DNA of 64,000 nucleotides from Rickettsiales bacterium (lineage in GTDB: Bacteria; Pseudomonadota; Alphaproteobacteria; Rickettsiales; UBA3002). Made by a program: the position numbers and the translations under genes. The notes beneath the pieces are model-generated. The model had not been told where the DNA came from. It saw only the letters and a list, made by a program, of their open reading frames with translations, and searched no databases. Positions 4,411 to 23,925 of the stretch are shown here, in pieces (the stretch's first letter is position 1; the number at the start of each line of letters is the position of its first letter). The DNA lies in contig JALEGK010000020.1 in assembly GCA_022763105.1 (NCBI GenBank), positions 492-64,491 of the forward strand, given 5' to 3'.

Positions 4411-7400
4411 ATGACTACACTCACCTCCGGAAATGACATCCAAGATTCTTCTGCTGAAACTGACCCGCTAGATATCACTGCTGATGCAGGCGATGATAGC
4501 GTGGTTGCTGGCTCTGGCGATGACCGCCTGCTAGGTAGTGAAGGTAACGACACTTTGCTAGGTGGCGAAGGCAGCGACACCATCTTTGGTAATGACGGTT
4601 CTGACGCATCAGGTTCTGATGATGACGTGCTTTATGGTGGTAACGGCAATGACTCTGTAGCTGGTGACGGTGGTGCAGACATCATTTACGGTGGTGACGG
4701 TATTGTAGATACAGATGATGGTGATGATACGCTTCGCGGCGGTACCGGCAATGACTCGATTCTGGGTAACGCAGGTGATGATGAGATTACCGGTAATAAC
4801 GGTGCTGACACCATTTATGGTGGTGCTGGTAACAACCTGATCTATGGTGGTAACGACGCTGACGGTGCAGGCGATGGTAGCGACCTAATCTATGGTGGTA
4901 CCGGAACGGACACTGTATATGGTGGTGAAGGTGATGACACCATTTTCGGTGGTGGCGGTCCAACCGCTCCAACCGATACGAACGATCAGCTATATGGTGG
5001 TGCTGGTAATGATGCGATTTACGGTAACGGTGGTGCTGACATCATTGATGGTGGTGCTGGTAACGACACGATCTATGGTGGTATTGGTGCGGATACCCTG
5101 ACTGGTGGTGCTGGTAACGATACCTTCTTCTTCTTTGATGGTGACACCACAGAAAACAAGGTGATTACGGATTTCGATGTGGATGAGGATTCGATCGGTA
5201 TTACCTCTAGCACGATTACAAGCACGAGCCAGATTGTGGTTTCTGAGGAAGCTAGCTCTGCACTTGCAGCCCCTGGCGATGTAACTATTACCATTGGTGG
5301 CATTACGCTAACATTGAATGGCGTTACTACGAGTCAGTTTAACGCGGTATTCGGCAGTAATCCTGGCAATCTATTTGGCTTCAACACTCCAGGTACGACG
5401 CCAACTGGCGGTACCAATACCGGCGGTTCTGGTTCTGATACCACGTCTGGCGGCGACGACACCACCTCTGGTGGCGGCGGCGGTGGTGGCGGCGGTGGTG
5501 GCGGCGGAGGTTCTACCTCTGTAACCCGTACCTTCACTGCAACGGCTGGTGAGACCCTAACCGGTGGTAGCGGTGCTGATTTCTTTGATGGCACGGCTGC
5601 AAATATTCAGGCAACTGACGTAGTTAACGGTGGTAGCGGTGCTGACATCGTGCGTTTGTATGGTGGTGGTAACTTTGATATCTCTGGTGTTACGTTAAAC
5701 TCCATCTCTGCTGTTCGTGAATCTGATGATGCTGCGGTGACGATTACTGCTGGTACCTTCAACGGTGATGTTGTTGGTGGTGGTGCTGCTGACACCTTTG
5801 TGTATGCACTCAGCGAACTAAGTAACTCTGATCTTATCACCGGTGGTGGTGGTACCGATACGCTGAACATTACCGGTGGTGGTACGATTGATCTGGGTAC
5901 GGCAGGAAGTAACGTATCTGGCGTTGAGTTGCTAACACTTGGTGCTGCAACGACCCTGACCGCAGGTGATGATACCTACACGATTACCGGTTCTGCTGGT
6001 AACGATCAATTCAACTACACCGCAGCTCGTATGACCTCTGCAGATAGCATTGATGGTAACGGTGGTGTTGATACTTTAAACATCACGGATGCTGGTTCTG
6101 CGATCGACACAACCAACGTGACCGATGTTGACAATATTAACCTGTCTAGCGCGGGCAACAACACGATCACTGCCGCGGATGACACTTACTCTCTAACGGG
6201 TGGTACCGCGAATGATCTGGTCAATGTTGCGGGTTCTGCACTTGATGGCGATGTGACCATCGACGGTAACGGTGGTACCGATACGGTGAACATTACCGGT
6301 GGTGGCGCGACTGTAGATGTGACCAATGTTGGTGACATTGATGCGATTACGTTGGCAGCGGCTACGACCATTACTGCAGGTCTAGATGATAACATTACCA
6401 TTACGGGTTCTACCGGTAATGACGAGTTAAACTACACTGCAGCGAATCTAACCTCTGCTGATACCATTGACGGTAACGGTGGTACCGATACGATTGATGT
6501 AACCACAGTAGGTGTGGCTATCAACACGACCAACGTGTCTGACGTTGATAATCTAAATCTTGCGGATGGTGGTGCAAACACCGTGACGGTTGGTACCAAC
6601 AACTTCAATGTGACCGGTGGTGATAATGATGACACGCTGATTTATGCGGCTGGTGCACTGACCTCTGATGACACCATTGACGGTGGTGCGCATGCAGGTT
6701 CGGATACGATTAGCGTAACCGGTGCCGGTTCGATTGACCTAACCAATGTAACCAACATCGAAGCATTGGATCTGACTGCAATGACCGGTGGTATTAACCT
6801 AACGGTGAACGCATCTGACTTTGCGATTGCTGGTACGGCTAATGACGATACCATCACCTATGATGATGCGAACTTCTCTGGCGCTGACTCTGTGGATGCG
6901 AATGCAGGCGATGATACATTGATTATCAATGATGCTAACAATGGTGGCTTTACACTGGATGCAACCAACCTTGATGGTACCAACACCCGTGAGATCGAAA
7001 ATATCGAACTTGGCGGTACTGGTGGTGCTAACATCACGCTGGTGGATGCGTTTGTTTCTACCGCGACAGGTACGAATGTAGATCTGAGCCTGGGTAGCCA
7101 AAACATCAACCTAGATACCGATGGTCTAACTGGTGCGAACACCGTGGATATTACTGGTGCAGGTTCAAACGTGATCACATTGACGGGTACGAATAACGCC
7201 AATATCAACCTGCTAGACGGGTTTAGCAGTAAAGTGATCTTGGCGAACGGTTCTAACGATGAAGTGACCGATGGCAATGGTAACGTGACTGTTACTGCCG
7301 ATGATGATGCGCGTTTGGATACCAACGATTCTATCGATGGTGGAACCGGAACGGATGTGCTTCAGCTAACCGATAGCGGCACGAACGGTATTTCCATTAC

Positions 7401-14711: not shown

Positions 14712-14804
14712 TAATGCAAATAAACTGGTAAGCTTGTACCGCGGTACGCCCCTACCTTGCGAAAACCGTTTGATGGGTTCGCAGAATGCTCGAAAATCGA
14801 AGAT

Positions 14805-14818
14805 TGGCGCGCCCGGCA
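14805..14818. repeat. 14-bp remnant of the tRNA-Arg 3'-end att core (TGGCGCGCCCGGCA)
   Basis: Identical to the first 14 nt of the 47-bp repeat at 14919 and 23849. It lies 100 bp to the left of the complete distal repeat. Confidence 0.6.
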
Positions 14819-14918
14819 AACGCTAAGTTCACTTTGTTCACTAAGCTTTTTGTCGAAGAGATTCTCATCATGAGAGTGCTTCAGTATTTCATCAGTCTTT
14901 GAGCAGACTTAGAAATAC

Positions 14919-14965
14919 TGGCGCGCCCGGCAGGACTCGAACCTGCAACCTTCAGATTAGAAGTC
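14919..14965. repeat. Distal att direct repeat (displaced 3' part of tRNA-Arg)
   Basis: 47/47 identity with 23849-23895 (tggcgcgcccggcaggactcgaacctgcaaccttcagattagaagtc). Confidence 0.95.
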
Positions 14966-15076
14966 TAACGCTCGTAATGTATATCAAAGTATCTCTGTGT
15001 ATGCAATAGCATATATTTCATTGAGTTATTGGCCTTTATCGGATATGAGGGTATTTAGAAATATCTAAAAATATCG

Positions 15077-15107
15077 CCCAAGAAGGGCACGAAAAGGGCA
15101 CGATAAA
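15077..15107 (+). promoter_or_regulatory. Paired GGGCACG motifs (11-bp phasing) just upstream of int; candidate integrase arm-type / autoregulatory sites
   Basis: cccaagaaGGGCACGaaaaGGGCACGataaa. A near-identical roughly 30-bp copy sits at 23777-23806 in the same orientation. This copy ends 7 nt before the int ATG. Confidence 0.5.
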
Positions 15108-15113
15108 GTAGCG

Positions 15114-16295
15114 ATGGAAGCTAAGAATCGATTTAATTTTACTAAGAAAGCTATCCAAAAATTACCGGTTGCTGATAAGGGAAAACGCCCTGCTTACTTT
15201 GACACGCAAATGAAAAACCTATGCGTGACGGTAACAGATAAGGGCAGCAAAATCTTTTGGGTTCGTAAAGTGATAGAAGGTCGTTCACGAAGAGTGAGAT
15301 TAGGAGCGTTCCCTGACTTATCAATAGAAAACGCCAGAGAGATGGCGTTAGAAGTAAAAAATCAAATTGCGAAGGGAGGAAATCCCTTTGAGCATCGCCA
15401 ACGCTTCAAACTAGAGCCCACTTTTTCTCAAATGTTTGCACAATACTTGGAGAAGCATGCGAAGCCGTATAAGAAGCCTTCGTCACTACGTGCTGATGAA
15501 TATAATTTTCATAAGTATATTGATAAAGATATAGGTCACATCAAGCTGTCGGCTGTCACAGGTGATGACATTCAGCGTTTACACAGTAAGACAGCAAAGA
15601 ACCATGGAAAGTACGTTGCAAACCGGATTTTGGCTTTAGTTCGTATCGTGTTCTCAAAAGCGATTGAGTGGAATATTACCGATAAAAAGAATCCAGCATC
15701 ACACATTAAGCCATTCAAAGAACACTCTCGTGATCGATTCCTTCAAAAAGATGAACTTCCACGCTTTATAGAAGCATTGGAAGCCGAGCCTAACCGAGAT
15801 ATTAGAGATTATGTATGGGTAAGCCTTTTAACAGGCGCAAGGCGTGGGAATGTTCAGGCAATGCGTTGGAAAGATATTAGTTTAGACCGCATGGAATGGC
15901 GTATTGAAGATACGAAAAACAATGAGCCGCAGGTGATACCACTTGTGCCCTTCTTGTGCGATTTACTCAGTCACCGCAAAAAACAAAATAAGAATGGTTC
16001 ACCTTTCGTATTTGCAAGTCGTGGAAAGACAGGTCATTTAACCGAGCCAAAGTCTGGTTGGAAGCGTATATTGAAGCGTGCAAATATTGATAATTTTCGT
16101 ATTCATGACTTGCGCCGGACGTCTGGTAGTTATCAGGCTGCACTAGGTACAAGTTTACCGATTATAGGAAAATCTTTAGGGCATAAAAGTTTGGCAGCAA
16201 CGCAGATATATTCTCGGCTCGATATTGACCCTGTTCGTGATTCTTTAACTCAAACTGCTGATGTTATATTGGCCTTAGGTAAGAAAAATGCCTAG
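15114..16295 (+). CDS. int: Tyrosine recombinase, P4/CP4-57-type integrase with N-terminal arm-binding (DUF4102-like) domain
   Basis: 393 aa. The N-terminus (FTKKAIQKLP..YFDTQMKNLCVTVTDKGSKIFWVR..LGAFPDLSIENAREMA) matches the arm-binding domain pattern. Catalytic motifs: TGARRGN, HDLRRT, LGHKSLAATQIYSR. Confidence 0.9.
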   Translation: MEAKNRFNFTKKAIQKLPVADKGKRPAYFDTQMKNLCVTVTDKGSKIFWVRKVIEGRSRRVRLGAFPDLSIENAREMALEVKNQIAKGGNPFEHRQRFKLEPTFSQMFAQYLEKHAKPYKKPSSLRADEYNFHKYIDKDIGHIKLSAVTGDDIQRLHSKTAKNHGKYVANRILALVRIVFSKAIEWNITDKKNPASHIKPFKEHSRDRFLQKDELPRFIEALEAEPNRDIRDYVWVSLLTGARRGNVQAMRWKDISLDRMEWRIEDTKNNEPQVIPLVPFLCDLLSHRKKQNKNGSPFVFASRGKTGHLTEPKSGWKRILKRANIDNFRIHDLRRTSGSYQAALGTSLPIIGKSLGHKSLAATQIYSRLDIDPVRDSLTQTADVILALGKKNA

Positions 16296-17100
16296 CTCAT
16301 CACTTAAATATAACTTTTCTGGTGTTCATGCAGTCTTTCCTGAATTTACATTTGATGAAGCCGCTTCAGTAGAAGAGGATCTTGTTGGAGTGTTAGGCGG
16401 AGGGCTGCCAGAAACCACTCACTGCTTTATCAGAAATTTTGTAAACAAATACCGAGAGCGGACCTTTGTTTATTACGAACGTCCTGCGCGAGATAGTGTA
16501 GACAGAATGTTACAAGAGGCAGAAAGCGCTCTTGATAATATTTATCAGGTTTTCGGTGAATCAAATCGGTTCATAGTAGATCAAGAGATGCTAGATAAAA
16601 ACGGTCAACCAAGCAGGGCACTGGATTATATTAGCTCTAAGTTAATTGCAGCGGCATTTAGTTCTGAAGATGGCCCTGCTATCCCACTAGCCTCTTACAA
16701 TGCTGCACTTCATCAGCTCGTATATTCTGCTGATGCAATTAAGCAAGCCGTTGCAAGTGCTCGTCAAAGCCTAAGCAAGCAAGAGTACGAAGAAGCACTG
16801 GTTGGCCCTGTAAATAAAGCAGATGTAAGAGAGATTGCGATTGCAGAGTTTTGCGGGGTTTGGAAGTATGCTTTTAATAGGTCAATTAGCGCTCATGTGG
16901 ACGGCGATTTCAAGAAGTGTGTAGAGGTTCTGTTAAAGGCAGTCGAATGGAGCGACAACAGAGCAACTTACAGCATTGCATTACCTAACGAAGAAAGTGG
17001 GATTAGAAAAACACTGGTAGCGGCTCGTGACTACTTTGATCGATTTGGGCCGAGCAAAGACTATACATTAGCCTGTTGGGATTTTGAGGAGATTTCATAA
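16288..17100 (+). CDS. Hypothetical protein (island-borne)
   Basis: 270 aa. The ATG overlaps the int stop by 8 nt. No recognisable motifs, TM or signal peptide. Confidence 0.55.
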   Translation: MPSSSLKYNFSGVHAVFPEFTFDEAASVEEDLVGVLGGGLPETTHCFIRNFVNKYRERTFVYYERPARDSVDRMLQEAESALDNIYQVFGESNRFIVDQEMLDKNGQPSRALDYISSKLIAAAFSSEDGPAIPLASYNAALHQLVYSADAIKQAVASARQSLSKQEYEEALVGPVNKADVREIAIAEFCGVWKYAFNRSISAHVDGDFKKCVEVLLKAVEWSDNRATYSIALPNEESGIRKTLVAARDYFDRFGPSKDYTLACWDFEEIS

Positions 17101-17201
17101 CAGGAAAAAATCCATCCGAAAAAATGAATTATTCTTCCTCTAAAAGATTTTGCCGTATCTGACAGTATCTGCTTGTAACTAAAAAGCAGAAAGGCCGATA
17201 A

Positions 17202-17399
17202 ATGTCAGACCTACTTACCCCCGAAGAAACTGCCGAATTGTTAGGCATTAGCGTGAATACCTTGCGTATGTGGCGTTGTGCCAAACGCTATGATTTACCA
17301 TACGTTAAGGTTGGGCGATTAGTGCGCTACAGAGAGAAAGAGATACAGGATTTTATTCTAAGAAATCAGAAGCAGGGCCAGAGTTTAGAGGCTTTGTAA
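17202..17399 (+). CDS. AlpA/excisionase-family helix-turn-helix protein
   Basis: 65 aa. LLTPEETAELLGISVNTLRMWR...LPYVKVGRLVRYREKEIQDFI is the typical MerR-like Xis/AlpA HTH. Confidence 0.8.
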   Translation: MSDLLTPEETAELLGISVNTLRMWRCAKRYDLPYVKVGRLVRYREKEIQDFILRNQKQGQSLEAL

Positions 17400-17407
17400 T
17401 ATAAAAA

Positions 17408-17426
17408 CGCCACTACGAGAGTGGCG
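17408..17426 (+). terminator. Hairpin after the alpA-like gene (weak terminator candidate, no T-run)
   Basis: CGCCACT-acgag-AGTGGCG, 9 nt after the stop. Confidence 0.3.
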
Positions 17427-17485
17427 CTTCCAACCTTCCACAAATCACTAACAGTAAACTGCCAGTATTATCTTTAAGCTAGTCT

Positions 17486-17869
17486 ATGACGTTTCATAAG
17501 ACAAGCACCGAAGATGGCTCTGGCACACAGGAGAGCTATATCGTGAAAAAGGAAAAACTAGACTTCGAGTATATTGAAAGAACGGCCTATGCCAGCCGAC
17601 TACAAATAGTAGAACGTTGGTTGCCAGGTGGTAAATTCCATGCGCATGCTTCAGATGAGTATGTAGCCCTTAACCCCAAGCGGTCAGATAATCGCCTTGG
17701 CTCATTCAAGGTTAATATGAGCTCATTGCTCTGGGCAGACTTTGCGACTTCGGATAGTGGCAAAGGGCTCATTAGTCTTGCGGCTTATTTATTCGATTTG
17801 TCATCATATCAGGCTGCATTGCAGTTGGCACAGATGATCGGCGTGGAGGAGCTAGCATATGTCAAATAG
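17486..17869 (+). CDS. Small protein resembling the N-terminal module often fused to plasmid/phage primases
   Basis: 127 aa. LNPKRSDNRLGSFKVNMSSLLWADFATSDSGKGLISLAAYLF matches the NPxRxDxxxGSFxxN...WxDFA...GDxISL pattern. Overlaps the next gene by 11 nt. Confidence 0.6.
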   Translation: MTFHKTSTEDGSGTQESYIVKKEKLDFEYIERTAYASRLQIVERWLPGGKFHAHASDEYVALNPKRSDNRLGSFKVNMSSLLWADFATSDSGKGLISLAAYLFDLSSYQAALQLAQMIGVEELAYVK

Positions 17870-20252
17870 CTTGCCCGATGCGTTTGCTCCGTTATCTGAT
17901 GAGGAGAGGCAGCGCCCTGCACCTATGCCTCATGTGAAAGAAGAATGGGTAAGGATAGAATCTGTACCTGCTAATGAAATTGAACGCCTTAAGCCGCAAG
18001 GACATCCTGAGAAAACGCACCGATATTATGATAGGGAAGGGCGTATTGAGCAGATTATATTTCGATACGTAAATAAAGACGGTAGCAAACGATTTACTCC
18101 TTATACGTTCTGTAAGAACATCGCCACAAATGAGCGTGGGTGGCGAAAGAAAGGAGTAGAGGGGAAGCGCTCTCTATATAATCTCCCAGAACTGTTAGAG
18201 AGAGTAAGCGCGCCTGTAATTGTTACAGAAGGTGAGAAAGCAGCCGATGCCATAAAAGAGTTGGGATTAGACTATGTGGCTGTCACATCTAGTAATGGTT
18301 ATGCATCGCCAGCAAAAAGCGATTGGATGCCCCTCAAAGGTCGTCATGCCGTTATCTGGGGTGATAATGATGATGCGGGCCGTAAGTACGTCAGGTCAGT
18401 TAAGGAGCTGCTTCTTCAGGCGGGTGTATTATCCCTCTCTATTGTTGAGTATGACGATAGCTTTGCAGATAAATGGGATGCAGCTGACGCATTAGAAGAA
18501 GGGTGGAGTAAAGAGAAAGCCGAAAAGCTCTTAAAGTCTGCAAAGCGTATTTCTATTGAGACACTCTATCCAAAAGGATTTAATCGTAACGATGGTGGGG
18601 TGTTTTGGACTCCGGAAGGAGAAGACAAAGACCCTATTAAGATTTGCTCGCCACTAGATATTATCGCGCATACTCATGATGAGAATGGAGAGAACAGTGG
18701 CCTATTACTACAATGGGTATCGCCTCGTTCTAATATGCCCCACGAGTGGGCCATGCCTGTCAAATTGCTTTCTGGGGATGGTAGAGAGATACGAGAATAT
18801 CTTCTGGATCGAGGACTTGTACTGCATAACGGATCGAAGCAAAAGCAGAAGCTGTTAGAGTATTTGCAAGAGTCTCAGCCTGTACGCCAAATGACGAGTG
18901 TGTCTCGGATTGGGTGGCATAATGATTACTATGTAATGCCCGGCGGCACTTTTCCTGAATCTGAGAATCTAGTGCTTCAAACCAAGATGGATGACTATCG
19001 TGTTTATCAAAGCAAAGGATCGTTAAATGATTGGCAGTCGTATATCGCTCGATATACGGAGGGTAACTCAAGGCTTGTTTTCGCAGTTTCATGTGCATTT
19101 GCTGCACCGCTGATGAGGCTTATTGGTAATAATGATAGCGGTGGTTTTCATTTCATTGGAAATAGCTCGATCGGAAAATCCACTACATTGAAAGTAGCAG
19201 CAAGCGTATGGGGTGGTAATGATGAAAGAGATTTCATTGAGCAATGGAGAGCGACGTCAAACGCACTAGAACGTTTGGCTGAAACGCATACTGACAGCCT
19301 ATTGTTGCTTGATGAGCTGGGACAGGCAGACTCACGTGATATTGCTGATACGATTTATATGCTGGCAAATAATCAGGGCAAGAAACGTATGTCTAAGGAT
19401 GCTGCATTAAAAGACTCGTACCGTTGGCGGCTATTATTTATTTCGACTGGCGAAGTGTCGTTAGAGAGTAAAATTATTGAAGCAGGGAAACGGCTAAATG
19501 CAGGGCTTGAAGTGCGATTCATCAATATTCCAGCTGATGCTGGACAAGGTTATGGGGCGTTCGAGAAAATTCATGATGAATTTGAGCATCCAGCTGAATT
19601 TGCACGCTACCTTAATGAACGCAGCGTAAAATATTATGGTGTGCCAATCCGCGCCTTCTTAAAGCGTTTGGTAAACAATAAAGAGCCTTACTTAGAAAGC
19701 GTTGCGCAAACAATGGATGCCTTCAAGCAAGAAGTGCTACATGAAAGTTATGATGGTCAAGTGGCGAGAGCAGCAGAACGATTCGCTATGGTGGCCGCAG
19801 GGGGAGAGCTGGCAATTCGTATGGGCGTATACACGCTTGAACAAGGAGCAGCACTTGAGGCCGCAGAGCGTTGCTTCAATGATTGGATGCAGTATCGTGG
19901 TACATCTGGTCGCTTAGAAGATGCTCAGATTATCAAAGCCGTGCGTTTGTATCTGGAGAAATATTTGGATAGTCGATTTTCACTAGAAGGCGATGAAGTG
20001 AGGGGAGAGCGTGCGGGGTGGAAACAAAAGAATGTCTTAGTCGACGGCACTCCCTGTGAGGAAATTTTTTATGTTTCTAAAGAGATGTTTCGTAACGAGA
20101 TATGCAAGGGCTTTGATTATAAAAATGCCGAAGCTGTACTAATTAAAGAGGGTTTTCTTTTTCCCGATGGTGCAGGTAATGCAACGCGTAACAAAACGAT
20201 ACAAAGCGCTAAAGGAAGACGCTATTGGATTAACGGAAACATATTATCTTAG
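17859..20252 (+). CDS. Toprim-domain primase fused to a DUF927-like SF3-type helicase/NTPase
   Basis: 797 aa. Toprim: VIVTEGEKAADA ... VIWGDNDDAGRKY. Walker A: GNSSIGKST. Walker B: LLLLDELGQ. Confidence 0.85.
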   Translation: MSNSLPDAFAPLSDEERQRPAPMPHVKEEWVRIESVPANEIERLKPQGHPEKTHRYYDREGRIEQIIFRYVNKDGSKRFTPYTFCKNIATNERGWRKKGVEGKRSLYNLPELLERVSAPVIVTEGEKAADAIKELGLDYVAVTSSNGYASPAKSDWMPLKGRHAVIWGDNDDAGRKYVRSVKELLLQAGVLSLSIVEYDDSFADKWDAADALEEGWSKEKAEKLLKSAKRISIETLYPKGFNRNDGGVFWTPEGEDKDPIKICSPLDIIAHTHDENGENSGLLLQWVSPRSNMPHEWAMPVKLLSGDGREIREYLLDRGLVLHNGSKQKQKLLEYLQESQPVRQMTSVSRIGWHNDYYVMPGGTFPESENLVLQTKMDDYRVYQSKGSLNDWQSYIARYTEGNSRLVFAVSCAFAAPLMRLIGNNDSGGFHFIGNSSIGKSTTLKVAASVWGGNDERDFIEQWRATSNALERLAETHTDSLLLLDELGQADSRDIADTIYMLANNQGKKRMSKDAALKDSYRWRLLFISTGEVSLESKIIEAGKRLNAGLEVRFINIPADAGQGYGAFEKIHDEFEHPAEFARYLNERSVKYYGVPIRAFLKRLVNNKEPYLESVAQTMDAFKQEVLHESYDGQVARAAERFAMVAAGGELAIRMGVYTLEQGAALEAAERCFNDWMQYRGTSGRLEDAQIIKAVRLYLEKYLDSRFSLEGDEVRGERAGWKQKNVLVDGTPCEEIFYVSKEMFRNEICKGFDYKNAEAVLIKEGFLFPDGAGNATRNKTIQSAKGRRYWINGNILS

Positions 20253-20254
20253 GT

Positions 20255-20473
20255 TGTTCTGCCTGTTCCGATTGTTCTAACGCCATAACAGGCTGAATAT
20301 CATGAATTATATCTGCTGTTGCGCAGGAACAAGTCACTAAGATGCGATTGTTCTGTTTGTTCTCTGGAACAATGGGAACAGTGGGTGGATGGGTTTTTGT
20401 TCTTGACCCAATTTATTTAAGTCTGTGTAATTCCTTCGATTTCTGTTTGGGAACGATGAGAACAACAAGAACA
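20255..20473. promoter_or_regulatory. Iteron array: 11 perfect and 1 imperfect TGTTC/GAACA motifs, 9-bp phased, dyad-symmetric; putative island replication origin
   Basis: TGTTC at 20255, 20264, 20273, 20349, 20358 and 20398. GAACA at 20327, 20367, 20376, 20460 and 20469. GAACG at 20451. The arrangement is mirror-symmetric about roughly 20364. It starts 3 nt after the primase-helicase stop. Confidence 0.6.
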
Positions 20474-20507
20474 GGGAGTTCGACAAGCATAGGAGAGAGC
20501 TTACGCT

Positions 20508-21362
20508 ATGAGATATGAGCATCAAGACGACTGGCGTTTTAAGTTAATGCTTTTTGTCTACGAGAATTTTTCAAAGATTTTATTAACCGCCTTCAGCCTG
20601 TTTGTGGCGTATGTCGAGTTAAGTGCATTTCTCGCAAATATACCTTGGTTTAATGAAGATGTTGTGTTGATGGAGGGGGTTTCAACATCAAAGGGCGCGA
20701 TCAGTGAATATATTGTTTTGGCGATTTTATTGTTCGCGAATGTTCACTTATGGCTAAATGATGCGACACGCTCTAGAGAGATCAAGCTGTATAAAGGTCT
20801 TTTGCTATCTAGCAGTCCTGCGGAGGATAAACTAAATGTATACTTGGCGCATTTAAGTAAGCGGCGATTTAATTTTGGCCACTCGCATAGAGTTAGCATT
20901 TATAAATACGACAAAGACTTAAAGTGCTTCTTCAGAGTAGCGCGCCATTGCCAGAGAGTTGACTGGAGTGACGGTGGGCATCGGGAAAGCTATTTGAGTG
21001 ATAAAGGTATAATCAGCAAGGTTTGGAAGGATGAGGACTTTAAAATCAAGGGGCTGCCAGATAGAGAGAAAAATTTTTATGGGTACAGTATGGAATTGGA
21101 TCGTGAAGGAGTTGGGCTTCCCGATGACGTGTTAAAGAAAATGAGGATGCCTAGCCGCTCTTATTGCGGGTTTAAGGTTCACGACCCAAACGAACCCCAC
21201 AGCCTTGGAGTGATTATATTTGAAAGTACGAAGCCAAATGGGTTAAAATATCGCAGGCTAAAAAGATTCATGCATTCTTCAGAAGGTAAGTTGTTAGCCC
21301 AGTTGACAGAAAGCAGGAAGTTAACGCAGAATGACAGTGAGGTAGGTTTATGGCCGCTTTAG
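20508..21362 (+). CDS. 2-TM membrane protein with C-terminal GAF-like soluble domain; candidate toxin/effector
   Basis: 284 aa. AGGAG at 20491-20495. Hydrophobic helices: ILLTAFSLFVAYVELSAFLANI and YIVLAILLFANVHLWL. C-terminal pattern: RVSIYKYDKDLKCFFRVARH..GIISKVW..YCGFKVHDPNEPHSLGVIIFEST. Confidence 0.6.
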   Translation: MRYEHQDDWRFKLMLFVYENFSKILLTAFSLFVAYVELSAFLANIPWFNEDVVLMEGVSTSKGAISEYIVLAILLFANVHLWLNDATRSREIKLYKGLLLSSSPAEDKLNVYLAHLSKRRFNFGHSHRVSIYKYDKDLKCFFRVARHCQRVDWSDGGHRESYLSDKGIISKVWKDEDFKIKGLPDREKNFYGYSMELDREGVGLPDDVLKKMRMPSRSYCGFKVHDPNEPHSLGVIIFESTKPNGLKYRRLKRFMHSSEGKLLAQLTESRKLTQNDSEVGLWPL

Positions 21363-21838
21363 GTGACATAATTGCGTATTTGTATCACGAATATCCTCTT
21401 AAGACTGACCTCTCTAAGGCTCGGGTTAATAAGCTTATTTATTTGGCGGACTGGATCTCTGTATTAAACAGAGGGCATCAGGTTTCAGATATACAGTGGG
21501 TGTTTAATAGATATGGTCCTTATGTGGACGATATAATTGAAGCTGTGGTATGTGACGATAAGCTGCATGTGCAGTCCACAAGAAATTATTTCGGAGACTT
21601 AAAAGAGATAATTTCAGCGGATGAAGATTATATTCCTGAAACACTGAGTGATGAAGATAAAGATTACCTCAGTGATGTTATCAAAGAGACTTCAGCGATG
21701 AGTTTTAAACCCTTCATCGATTTTGTGTACTCCACATATCCTGTTAAGTCACAGCCTCGAGGTGCTTCGTTAAACTTGCCTCAGTTGGCCGATCAGTTAA
21801 AATCCCTTATTAGTCGCGCGGCTAGTTCTGTAGTCTAG
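21350..21838 (+). CDS. Panacea/DUF4065 (SocA-like) domain protein; candidate antitoxin
   Basis: 162 aa. KARVNKLIYLADWISVL..IQWVFNRYGPYVDDI fits the KLxKLLYxA...W..GPV core of the domain. Overlaps the upstream gene by 13 nt. Confidence 0.6.
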   Translation: MAALGDIIAYLYHEYPLKTDLSKARVNKLIYLADWISVLNRGHQVSDIQWVFNRYGPYVDDIIEAVVCDDKLHVQSTRNYFGDLKEIISADEDYIPETLSDEDKDYLSDVIKETSAMSFKPFIDFVYSTYPVKSQPRGASLNLPQLADQLKSLISRAASSVV

Positions 21839-21928
21839 TATTAAGCACCCCTATAAGGCGTTTGATTCTGTTTCTCTCTGCTTTTTCTAAACAGTATAAT
21901 ACAGCATTAAAACTGTTTAGGGGGAGTT

Positions 21929-22270
21929 ATGCCGATACCATATTTATTGATGGGTGCTCTAGGGCTTGGTGCTGCACTATTGCTGAAATCTGAGGCTGAT
22001 AATCAGCAGCCAGCGGCAGATGATGAGAAGTTATGGGAAGAAGAAAAGGAAAAGGTTTCGACTGCCATGGCTATAGATATAGGAACGGAAGATGGCTCAG
22101 AAACAGTAAGCGAAACAGAAAAAGATGGTGCTGTTTCCCCTTATAGGGAAAATCAAACAGTTTCTGAACCAAATGCATTACGCCGTGGTGACCGCTTTAC
22201 ATGCCCTGATACAGGACAAGAATTGCAGGTTCGTGCGGTCGGTGGTCGTGGAAGAAAAGCGGTTCACTAA
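21929..22270 (+). CDS. Small hypothetical protein with one N-terminal TM helix and an acidic tail
   Basis: 113 aa. GGGGAG RBS at 21921-21926. IPYLLMGALGLGAALLL TM helix followed by a Glu/Asp-rich region. Preceded by TATAAT flanked by an 8-bp inverted repeat. Confidence 0.5.
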   Translation: MPIPYLLMGALGLGAALLLKSEADNQQPAADDEKLWEEEKEKVSTAMAIDIGTEDGSETVSETEKDGAVSPYRENQTVSEPNALRRGDRFTCPDTGQELQVRAVGGRGRKAVH

Positions 22271-23181
22271 CTCGCCTGTGGGTGACACTCCCTATATACC
22301 TTCATTGCGTGTTCATTACTGACCTTAGTGTAAATTTGGGTGTTACTGATACTGGTATGCCCAAGCAGCTTTTGCAGAGATATGATATCTGTTCCGTTTT
22401 CCATCATGTGAGTGGCAAAGCTATGTCTAAAAGCATGCGGTGTTACCGTGTGGGCCAATCCTAGTTCTTTTCGCACTTTTACAACGATGCGTTGAAAGAC
22501 TGCCATCTGCAATCTGTCGCCATGTGCACCTATAAACAAGGGGCAGCCGCCTATGACTTGCCGAGGGCGTAAAGCAATATAGCACTCTAGTGTTTTTTGA
22601 GCGATTGGTAAGAGGTAGGCCATACGTTGGCGATTACCTTTCCCTGTTATACGGATATTTTCTTTAATCGTGCTACCACTGAGTACATCGCGGTCATTTA
22701 GCTTGAGTGCCTCTCCTATACGCATGCCTGTGCTATAGAGCAATGTGAGCAAAGCTCGATCTCGAATACCTATCCATGGTTTGCGCGAAACAAAAGTGAT
22801 AGCTTCTAAGCAATGAAGGGCTTCATCAACGGTTAGGGGGCGGGGTAGCGGCCTTTCTGCTCTGGGCAGTGGCAAGAAATGTGGTTCTGAGTTTGTGATG
22901 CCATGGCAATCTTCTAAGAAAAGATAGAATGAGCGGATTGAAGCAATCACTTTTCGCGTTGAATATGCTTCATAACCTTGAGCATGACGGTAACTAAGCC
23001 ATCTCCTAAATGACTTACGATCTAGCAACGCTAGAGACTCAAGGCTAATAGGAAGCCCTAGTTGTTGCTCGATAAAGCAAAGAAACTGTCTAGTGTCGCT
23101 TAGGTAACTGTTTGCTGTTAGAGGTGCTTTCTGTTTGCAATGAAGCAGCCATTCAGCCCATTCGTGAAGTAAATTATCCAT
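22267..23181 (-). CDS. XerC/XerD-like tyrosine recombinase (second recombinase of the island)
   Basis: 304 aa. Catalytic motifs: YSTGMRIGEAL, HAFRHSFATHMMENG, LLGHTSISNTQIYTKV. Confidence 0.85.
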   Translation of the reverse strand: MDNLLHEWAEWLLHCKQKAPLTANSYLSDTRQFLCFIEQQLGLPISLESLALLDRKSFRRWLSYRHAQGYEAYSTRKVIASIRSFYLFLEDCHGITNSEPHFLPLPRAERPLPRPLTVDEALHCLEAITFVSRKPWIGIRDRALLTLLYSTGMRIGEALKLNDRDVLSGSTIKENIRITGKGNRQRMAYLLPIAQKTLECYIALRPRQVIGGCPLFIGAHGDRLQMAVFQRIVVKVRKELGLAHTVTPHAFRHSFATHMMENGTDIISLQKLLGHTSISNTQIYTKVSNEHAMKVYRECHPQAS

Positions 23182-23743
23182 GGCTAGCCTCGACTTGAAT
23201 TTGCGGGGTGATGAGGGGTAGCCATTGATCGAGTGTGCGATTGACTACCCAGACAGATACACCGAAACGTTTGGCAATTACGCCCTTTGGGGTTTTAGCG
23301 ATATGAAGCCGGCACATGGCGCGTGACCGCAGGTGATGCAGTCTTTTTTGTATTCGTTGATGTAGATAAGTGTAGTGGCCTCGTAATCTCTCGGGGGACA
23401 CATCATGCAGCATGGCGCGTGCTGTTATGATTTCATCTATAGGGCACTTACTCTTTCTGCCTTCTCTATGGATGTTGAGAGTGATCCAGAACATACGAGA
23501 GCTTTCTGTTTTCCAGATATTCAAACGTTCAAGGCGTTCGTGATCTATGTCCTTTTGACGTTCGATACTCCGAGCTAAATCGCGCATGAGTGGCGCAGCA
23601 AGCAATGTAAGCTGCTCGGCCATGGCTCGTGACAGGTTAAGAGTAATCTCAATACGATCATTGCCTGCTGATGTGACGTTGCTTATAGAAATAGGGGATG
23701 AATGAGAGAATAAGTCTGGAATATCGGGCATTTGAGCCTCCAT
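23174..23743 (-). CDS. Hypothetical protein with C-terminal HTH; partner of the XerC/D-like recombinase
   Basis: 189 aa. Its stop overlaps the recombinase start by 8 nt. KGVIAKRFGVSVWVVNRTLDQW is HTH-like. Confidence 0.55.
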   Translation of the reverse strand: MEAQMPDIPDLFSHSSPISISNVTSAGNDRIEITLNLSRAMAEQLTLLAAPLMRDLARSIERQKDIDHERLERLNIWKTESSRMFWITLNIHREGRKSKCPIDEIITARAMLHDVSPERLRGHYTYLHQRIQKRLHHLRSRAMCRLHIAKTPKGVIAKRFGVSVWVVNRTLDQWLPLITPQIQVEASHG

Positions 23744-23776
23744 CTAACGTAGGTTAAACCAAGCGTTAGACTGCAT

Positions 23777-23806
23777 CCCAGAAGGGCACGGCAAGGGCAC
23801 GAAAAA
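23777..23806 (+). promoter_or_regulatory. Second copy of the paired GGGCACG motif (tRNA-proximal arm)
   Basis: cccagaaGGGCACGgcaaGGGCACGaaaaa. GGGCACG at 23784 and 23795 (11-bp phasing). It lies 42 bp from the att core. Confidence 0.5.
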
Positions 23807-23848
23807 TATCTCGGAGGATGACAAAAGCCATCAACCCATTGATATGTT

Positions 23849-23925
23849 TGGCGCGCCCGGCAGGACTCGAACCTGCAACCTTCAGATTAGAAGTCAGATG
23901 CTCTATCCAGTTGAGCTACGGGCGC
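23849..23925 (-). tRNA. tRNA-Arg (anticodon TCT)
   Basis: 77-nt cloverleaf. Acceptor stem GCGCCCG/CGGGCGC. D arm GCTC/GAGC. Anticodon arm TCTGA-CTTCTAA-TCTGA with one T-T mismatch. T arm GCAGG-TTCGAGT-CCTGC. CCA is encoded. Confidence 0.9.

Follow-up and report, generated by a model that had tools for sequence, protein, structure and literature searches.

A 64,000-nucleotide stretch of DNA from a Rickettsiales bacterium of the UBA3002 lineage (assembly GCA_022763105.1, contig JALEGK010000020.1, positions 492 to 64,491; hereafter the window) carries an integrative island of 8.98 kb (14919-23895), which is inserted in a tRNA-Arg(TCT) gene and bounded by a 47-bp perfect direct repeat (14919-14965 / 23849-23895). 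The repeat search paired 14919-14973 with 23849-23903, the first 47 nt being identical (47/47). The core of the island is made up of a gene for an integrase, a gene for an AlpA-like regulator, a short primase module, a gene for a 797-amino-acid (aa) primase-helicase, referred to here as Pri-Rep, and a 219-bp array of short repeats (iterons), which is the subject of this analysis. The integrase, regulator and Pri-Rep genes and the predicted origin all lie on the + strand, at a specific attachment (att) site (Table 1). This order, int - alpA - primase module - Pri-Rep - ori, is the replicon design of the Staphylococcus aureus pathogenicity islands (SaPIs) and of the phage-inducible chromosomal islands (PICIs) of Gram-negative bacteria. 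Based on the sequence and its computational analysis we suggest that the array is very probably the vegetative replication origin of the island, bound by the adjacent Pri-Rep, as the first-pass annotation of the window had proposed.

A word search reproduced all the iteron coordinates of that annotation: 11 perfect TGTTC/GAACA pentamers and one GAACG, i.e. 12 sites, are found within 20255-20473. The stop codon of the upstream gene (TAG) occupies 20250-20252, therefore the array starts at the third base past the stop, after a gap of 2 nt. Six sites are found in each orientation, all those on the + strand being perfect, while the - strand set includes the degenerate GAACG. Within the blocks the spacing is 9 bp, and all 12 iterons are flanked on both sides by pyrimidines, which gives the extended consensus yTGTTCy, the same as that read from the sequence before. 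The mirror symmetry described earlier was also found: every one of the 12 sites has a partner of opposite orientation within 1 bp, the centre of the outer triplets being 20364.0 and that of the inner sites 20364.5. When 12 sites were placed at random 5000 times, no more than 10 of them were mirrored, and typically 4-6. The dyad centre is formed by the 2+2 iteron block (59% AT), and tracts of 70-80% AT sit in the 48-49-bp spacers. No Rfam family matched the region, the search giving just a sub-threshold chance match.

Table 1. Features of the island and of its predicted replication origin (positions in the window)
Feature	Position	Strand	Basis and remarks
attL, duplicate of the 3' part of tRNA-Arg	14919..14965	.	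47-bp direct repeat
Tyrosine integrase with arm-binding domain	15114..16295	+	Pfam Phage_integrase 1.4e-22, Arm-DNA-bind_3 5.6e-14
AlpA/excisionase-like HTH_17 regulator, 65 aa	17202..17399	+	Pfam HTH_17 9e-13; PHROG 66 excisionase/regulator; TIGR01764
127-aa reading frame, N-terminal primase module of ~950-aa homologues	17486..17869	+	BLASTP
Pri-Rep, 797 aa, Toprim-DUF927	17859..20252	+	Pfam DUF927 2.5e-79, Toprim
Pri-Rep C-terminal domain (residues 690-797), predicted origin-binding, winged-helix-like	19926..20249	+	AlphaFold2 (AF2) and Foldseek
Whole origin (predicted)	20255..20473	.	12 yTGTTCy, dyad >>> < >> << > <<<; steps 9, 9, 54, 22, 9, 9, 9, 22, 53, 9, 9
Left outer triplet, direct iterons (20255, 20264, 20273)	20255..20277	+	Word search
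Left spacer, 49 bp, candidate melting site	20278..20326	.	AT-rich core ~20290-20319 (70% AT)
Single inverted iteron	20327..20331	-	Word search
Central block, direct iterons at 20349 and 20358, inverted ones at 20367 and 20376	20349..20380	.	Dyad centre 20364.5
Single direct iteron	20398..20402	+	Word search
Right spacer, 48 bp, candidate melting site	20403..20450	.	67% AT; 75-80% AT core at 20400-20429
Right outer triplet, inverted iterons (20451 degenerate GAACG, 20460, 20469)	20451..20473	-	
Toxin-antitoxin pair, 284-aa protein and SocA/Panacea-domain protein	20508..21838	+	Pfam SocA_Panacea 9.8e-12
Intact tRNA-Arg(TCT); its 3' 47 nt (23849-23895) are attR	23849..23925	-	ARAGORN; repeat search

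The array is far beyond chance. On both strands, TGTTC occurs 115 times in the window, i.e. 0.39 times per 219 bp; for the whole genome of 2.06 Mb the figures are 3283 and 0.35, which agrees with the value of about 0.4 given by the first-pass annotation. In itself, TGTTC is no more frequent in the window than expected (115 matches versus 133 +/- 10 in shuffles). By a Poisson estimate, at least 11 matches at a mean of 0.35 would be expected with a probability of about 2e-13 per 219-bp segment. The genome-wide motif statistics which had been recommended as a check revealed no other 219-bp stretch of the 2.06-Mb genome with five or more TGTTC copies. A scan of the genome for any word (51,130 segments of 260 bp; 5-mers with at least three same-strand steps of 8-10 bp and at least seven copies) returned nothing apart from the iteron site and a single lysine-rich coding repeat, located on a different contig. 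In the latter (G000, contig C71:20740-20955), copies of AAAGC fall within a coding frame of 612 aa, in its lysine-rich C-terminal tail, and are therefore a coding repeat, not an iteron array. The array at 20255-20473 is the only such non-coding array in this genome.

The protein encoded directly upstream, Pri-Rep, is a DnaG-type Toprim primase fused to an MCM-like DUF927 helicase of the SaPIbov1-Rep/Cch type, with a Rep-like C-terminal domain. A profile built from 30 homologues and searched against the PDB matched SaPIbov1 Rep (8tch, E 3e-28) and the SCCmec protein Cch (5dgk, E 1e-22), and the NCBIfam family Cch1 gave a partial match to Pri-Rep (1e-18). For the AF2 model of the whole protein (predicted local distance difference test score, pLDDT, of 88), Foldseek placed the helicase and tail closest to Cch (template modelling score, TM, 0.80) and SaPIbov1 Rep (TM 0.72), followed by MCM proteins, and the N-terminal part closest to DnaG primase cores. 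All the residues that are invariant in the 30-sequence alignment are retained, among them the Toprim acidic residues, G439-K440 of Walker A and D485-E486 (Walker B). The C-terminal domain (108 residues) modelled alone, using a 27-sequence alignment, reached a pLDDT of 94; in the PDB it comes closest to the corresponding domain of SaPIbov1 Rep (8tch; TMq 0.72, root-mean-square deviation 2.3 A), followed by 5vfx, a winged-helix protein whose structure was determined on oriT DNA, and by Cch. Its predicted recognition helix comprises residues ~754-763 and its wing residues 776-792.

Close relatives of Pri-Rep are scarce. Megablast against 5,426 E. coli genomes gave no match, the best match among 5.8 billion proteins is 40% identical, and the nearest relative in 101 related genomes is a remnant pseudogene with 54% identity, found in another genome of the family. 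At locus L002 (G002:C9:32321-36586) the copy of the helicase gene is truncated and interrupted by stops, and the TGTTC array is only partially kept (2 + 5 copies); this locus is therefore a decaying sister island. Its array, located past the stop, consists of two TGTTC at an 18-bp step, an AT-rich stretch and then, in steps of 9 bp, two direct copies and three inverted ones; the spacers are unrelated to those of the island, and the genes that come next are on the opposite strand. The first-pass annotation had suggested examining whether motif positions are conserved while spacers drift. This is what is seen in L002, where TGTTC at 9-bp steps is kept between differing spacers, but it applies to a short range and to one locus only, because no close relatives were found.

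More distant homologues also bear on the plan of the array. The comparative set comprised 86 loci with homologues, drawn from the genome search, from 80 named genome contigs and from two plasmid records. The array had been expected to occur in homologous islands, and a phased 5-mer array is indeed found at or just past the stop codon in 31 of the 86 homologue loci, being in most of the 31 the best phased array of the whole 6-8-kb locus. The iteron words vary among loci (GGGACA, GGTAAC, GTCAC, GGCAAC, TGTTCC and others). The complete >>><>><<><<< plan is present in L026, L039, L087, L102 and L003 (with the words GGCAACA, GTGTTCC, GGGGACA, GGTAACA and GGGTAAC), with steps of 9, 9, about 54, 22-24 and 9 bp. 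The full series of steps is 9, 9, 54, 24, 9, 27, 9, 24, 54, 9, 9 in L026 (Pseudobdellovibrionaceae), 9, 9, 55, 22, 9, 31, 9, 22, 54, 9, 9 in L039 (Gluconacetobacter, GTGTTCC) and 9, 9, 54, 24, 9, 17, 9, 25, 30, 9, 9 in L087, and the same site order is found in the Salmonella record OX345456 (6989 bp). At the sequence level, a strict 12-iteron mirror plan, with kept spacing and freely changing words, is located 3' of DUF927 primase-helicase genes in Alpha-, Beta- and Gammaproteobacteria and in Bdellovibrio-like bacteria.

The array is found farther downstream, by 0.3-2.4 kb, or within the 3' end of the reading frame in a dozen loci. The best array is placed inside the last 230-300 nt of the long reading frame in L076, L086 and L095, and 1-2.4 kb downstream, with a gene between, in L030, L038, L068, L073, L085, L091, L093 and L100. 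A GTCAC iteron array is also found 3' of the DUF927 gene of the 20-kb Methylobacterium nodulans plasmid pMNOD05 (L103, NC_011888.1), inside an annotated 'hypothetical protein' coding sequence (locus 5532-5921), which is possibly mis-called. Plasmid pTAO100, which also has a DUF927 gene, was uninformative as a comparison, its best array adjoining repM and not the 3' end of the DUF927 gene. Beyond these homologues, a scan of IMG/VR for TGTTC-N4-TGTTC-N4-TGTTC yielded 120 contigs, of which 14 have bidirectional arrays of 8-12 copies (L108, L124, L138, L152, L156, L179 and 8 more). None of these 14 arrays adjoins a Pri-Rep homologue; presumably, other initiators use the same TGTTC core word in these viral contigs.

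The interpretation of the array as a replication origin is supported because Pri-Rep, with its C-terminal domain, is a homologue of SaPIbov1 Rep by both sequence and fold, because the plan of the array is conserved past homologous genes while the iteron word changes, and because this plan matches that of the experimentally tested origin of the E. coli island EcCICFT073 (PMC6092414). On this basis, the following course of events may be envisaged. By analogy with EcCICFT073, expression would be switched on via the AlpA-like regulator, probably by a helper phage. As SaPI work suggests, the C-terminal domains would bind the iterons without ATP. One hexamer would then occupy each half-array and two hexamers would assemble head to head, an arrangement suggested by the six sites per half, which fit one hexamer. 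The DNA would melt in one or both of the ~48-bp spacers that set each outer triplet apart from the inner sites; these spacers are likely melting sites because they are the most AT-rich parts of the array. The helicase would load itself (3'-5'), the Toprim domain would prime, and a host polymerase would copy the excised circle. An origin of this kind would mark the 9-kb island as self-replicating, and not as a passive insertion, which bears on the upkeep and spread of its toxin-antitoxin cargo. Moreover, the mirror plan could provide a simple sequence signature for annotating such origins, and the protein/iteron pairs constitute a defined natural set for studying how self-loading helicases read DNA.

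Several observations do not fit easily with the proposed origin. The dyad centre is an iteron block and not an AT-rich tract as in SaPI origins, and the AT-rich parts are just moderate (67-80% over 20-50 bp). The primase is split: the 127-aa reading frame matches residues 4-99 of homologue P0010 (37% identity, E 1e-20, BLASTP), i.e. the first ~100 residues of ~950-aa homologues in which the two parts are fused, therefore the N-terminal primase module is encoded here in a separate frame, which overlaps the Pri-Rep gene by 11 nt. This could be a frameshift impairing the replicon, but it may equally be a natural split or a programmed frameshift. In addition, about 25 Pseudomonas homologues (~970 aa) have no phased array within 3 kb (the array-less Pseudomonas loci are L040-L042, L046-L049, L053-L056, L060-L062, L065, L066, L069, L070, L072, L075, L077 and L080). 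The link between gene and array is therefore not universal, and in this Pseudomonas clade the origin must lie elsewhere or be differently built. Finally, with iteron word groups made by hand, the core-corrected identity of the C-terminal domains was not higher between proteins sharing an iteron word (residual difference ~0, permutation p = 0.55). The overall identity of these domains does not track the iteron word, and the comparison gave no signal of direct protein-DNA co-variation; iteron specificity probably rests on few residues.

The first-pass annotation had also offered another possibility, namely that the TGTTC sites form an operator array. Their sole function would then be to bind a repressor or activator of the toxin-antitoxin operon starting at 20508. 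It is true that the array ends 35 nt before the ATG of this operon, that the terminator scan of 19900-20700 found no terminator and no terminator-like site between the array and the upstream gene, and that visual inspection of the right spacer shows a TTGACC-N17-TGTAAT sequence (20403-20431). However, the promoter scan of the same region found no sigma-70 site. What is more, it is the helicase gene that is the constant neighbour of the array across the 31 array-bearing relatives, while the next reading frame varies in size and strand (17 minus, 11 plus and 3 none, by a crude tally based on open reading frames) and lies on the opposite strand in the closest relative. Twelve sites spread over 219 bp according to the plan of a tested origin are also unlike a toxin-antitoxin operator. 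A purely regulatory array is thus a weak proposal, which we consider very unlikely; a side role of the array in transcription is conceivable.

It is less easy to dismiss, though still unlikely, that the array is an origin by descent only, which is no longer used in a decaying island. The separate primase module, the degenerate iteron (GAACG), the lack of any relative of more than 54% identity among the 5.8 billion proteins or the 101 related genomes, and the closest relative being itself a pseudogene remnant would all agree with such decay. The state of preservation of the element speaks against it, as 11 of the 12 iterons are perfect and the dyad is exact to 1 bp, the 797-aa frame is open with all family-invariant residues kept, the att repeats are identical at 47/47 positions and the integrase is intact. 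Least probable of all, in our opinion, is some other cis-acting site, for instance a partition centromere, a site for packaging or the arm sites of a recombinase, to which a different protein of the island would bind. Short phased repeat arrays do also act as centromeres and arm sites, and the island encodes further helix-turn-helix (HTH) proteins, i.e. the AlpA-like regulator and a 189-aa protein (23174-23743). Nevertheless, Pfam, PHROGs and NCBIfam searches found no ParA/ParB or terminase homologue in the island, the array is 5 kb away from either att end, and it has the plan of a tested replication origin, always placed 3' of an initiator-helicase gene.

The remaining part of the island contains an orphan 270-aa reading frame (+ strand) between the integrase and HTH_17 genes and, past the toxin-antitoxin pair, a small reading frame followed by a second recombinase operon (XerC-like), which is on the - strand. 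Searches of the island reading frames against Pfam, PHROGs and NCBIfam revealed no capsid, terminase or related packaging/interference families. Just outside attL (14800-14918), 14 nt from the start of the att repeat recur at 14805-18, and past them there are two GTTCACT words 9 bp apart (14827 and 14836), the second of which reads TGTTCACT, i.e. 7/8 of the TGTTCACC repeat of phage P4. These motifs may be the remains of a previous, P4-like occupant of this tRNA site.

P4 had been brought up in the first-pass annotation, which stated that its alpha primase-helicase binds repeated octamers in ori and crr, and considered the arrangement at 20255-20473 similar. The statement on P4 is right, since the P4 record annotates TGTTCACC in both ori and crr: it lists sixteen 'ori type 1 repeats', of which eleven have exactly this sequence, and crr is located directly past the terminator of the alpha gene. 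P4 alpha also combines a Toprim primase, a helicase and a C-terminal winged-helix origin-binding domain, and its iterons contain TGTTC (PMC2777425). The likeness is, however, functional only, and assignment of the island to the P4 type fails on the helicase family, the octamer and the split origin. The alpha helicase is of the D5_N/SF3 type, whereas Pri-Rep is a DUF927 protein with no D5_N or Pox_D5 match; none of the 12 island copies is TGTTCACC, the base past TGTTC being always a pyrimidine; and P4 needs two iteron regions (ori and crr, ~4.7 kb apart), while the island and the genome have a single TGTTC cluster. P4 genes such as sid, psu and delta were not found in the island. In P4 ori (L106, NC_001609.1:9310-9413) the TGTTCACC copies are arranged as <<< > <<, with steps of 10, 11, 22, 43 and 10, and this layout is one 3-1-2 half of the island plan; the units of P4 crr each begin with two TGTTCACC copies at a 9-bp step.

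A close parallel is offered by the SaPIs. SaPI Rep is a self-loading initiator helicase whose C-terminal winged-helix domain recognises 6-12 penta- or hexanucleotide iterons; these lie directly 3' of rep, in opposed sets around an AT-rich region, and ATP is not needed for binding and melting (PMC9371898, PMC7581432). Cch, a DUF927 protein, is a relative of SaPIbov1 Rep (PMC7581432). Pri-Rep has the DUF927/MCM-like helicase and the fold of the C-terminal domain in common with SaPIbov1 Rep (8tch) and Cch (5dgk), and SaPIs and the island also share an origin, known or predicted, directly 3' of the gene, 5-6-base iterons in two opposed sets and a co-encoded primase (PMC9371898, PMC7581432). The position and make-up of a SaPI-type origin are thus found here, with 12 pentamers starting 2 nt past the stop, six per orientation. 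On the other hand, the island differs from SaPIbov1 in the fusion of primase and helicase (Toprim-DUF927), in its Gram-negative-type genome and in an identity of just ~15-18%. It also has a central 2+2 iteron block with two AT-richer spacers, in contrast to the one central AT-rich tract described in the literature for SaPI.

Gram-negative PICIs carry int, alpA, pri-rep and then the origin, and for EcCICFT073 it was reported that a rep-ori fragment maintained a temperature-sensitive plasmid, both rep and ori being required (Fillol-Salom 2018, PMC6092414). The order int - alpA - pri/rep - ori, running rightward, is common to EcCICFT073 and the Rickettsiales island, and in both the array starts just past the pri-rep stop. 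The EcCICFT073 origin (L105, E. coli CFT073 NC_004431.1:1383995-1384284) uses the word TCTACC in the same mirror site order, with steps of 9, 46, 22, 11, 9, (10), 21, 11, 22, 46, 9, so that in both the outer repeats are followed by a spacer of 46-55 bp, one inverted site, an interval of 22 bp and a central block, and then by the mirror image. The AT-rich tract of EcCICFT073 lies in one spacer. Its Pri-Rep, unlike that of the island, is of the D5_N/DUF5906/Pox_D5 (SF3) type and has no detectable sequence similarity to the latter, and the island, at 9 kb, differs in having no recognisable capsid, packaging or interference genes.

It is tempting to view the 3-1-2 / 2-1-3 plan (steps of 9, ~54, ~22 and 9 bp) as a fixed loading platform set by the geometry of a double hexamer, where each C-terminal domain would take one iteron and each hexamer six, and which unrelated MCM-like DUF927 and SF3/D5_N (EcCICFT073) helicases would have adopted independently. 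We put this forward tentatively and consider it rather doubtful. As a further speculation, the 9-bp step corresponds to about -51 degrees per site, near the 60-degree subunit spacing of a hexamer ring. If this were true, the layout of the origin would be usable as a structural ruler for helicase assembly and DNA melting.

Also close to the island are DUF927 loci of other Proteobacteria. The Salmonella record OX345456 and Gluconacetobacter aggeris NZ_JABEQD010000028 have the Pri-Rep architecture, at 35-40% identity, and the 12-iteron plan in common with it, and G. aggeris also shares the TGTTC core (word GTGTTCC). Such loci differ from the island in their iteron words or flanks, hosts and cargo. 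Conceptually the island is nothing new: it is a well-formed element of the SaPI/PICI pri-rep-ori kind whose protein is very divergent.

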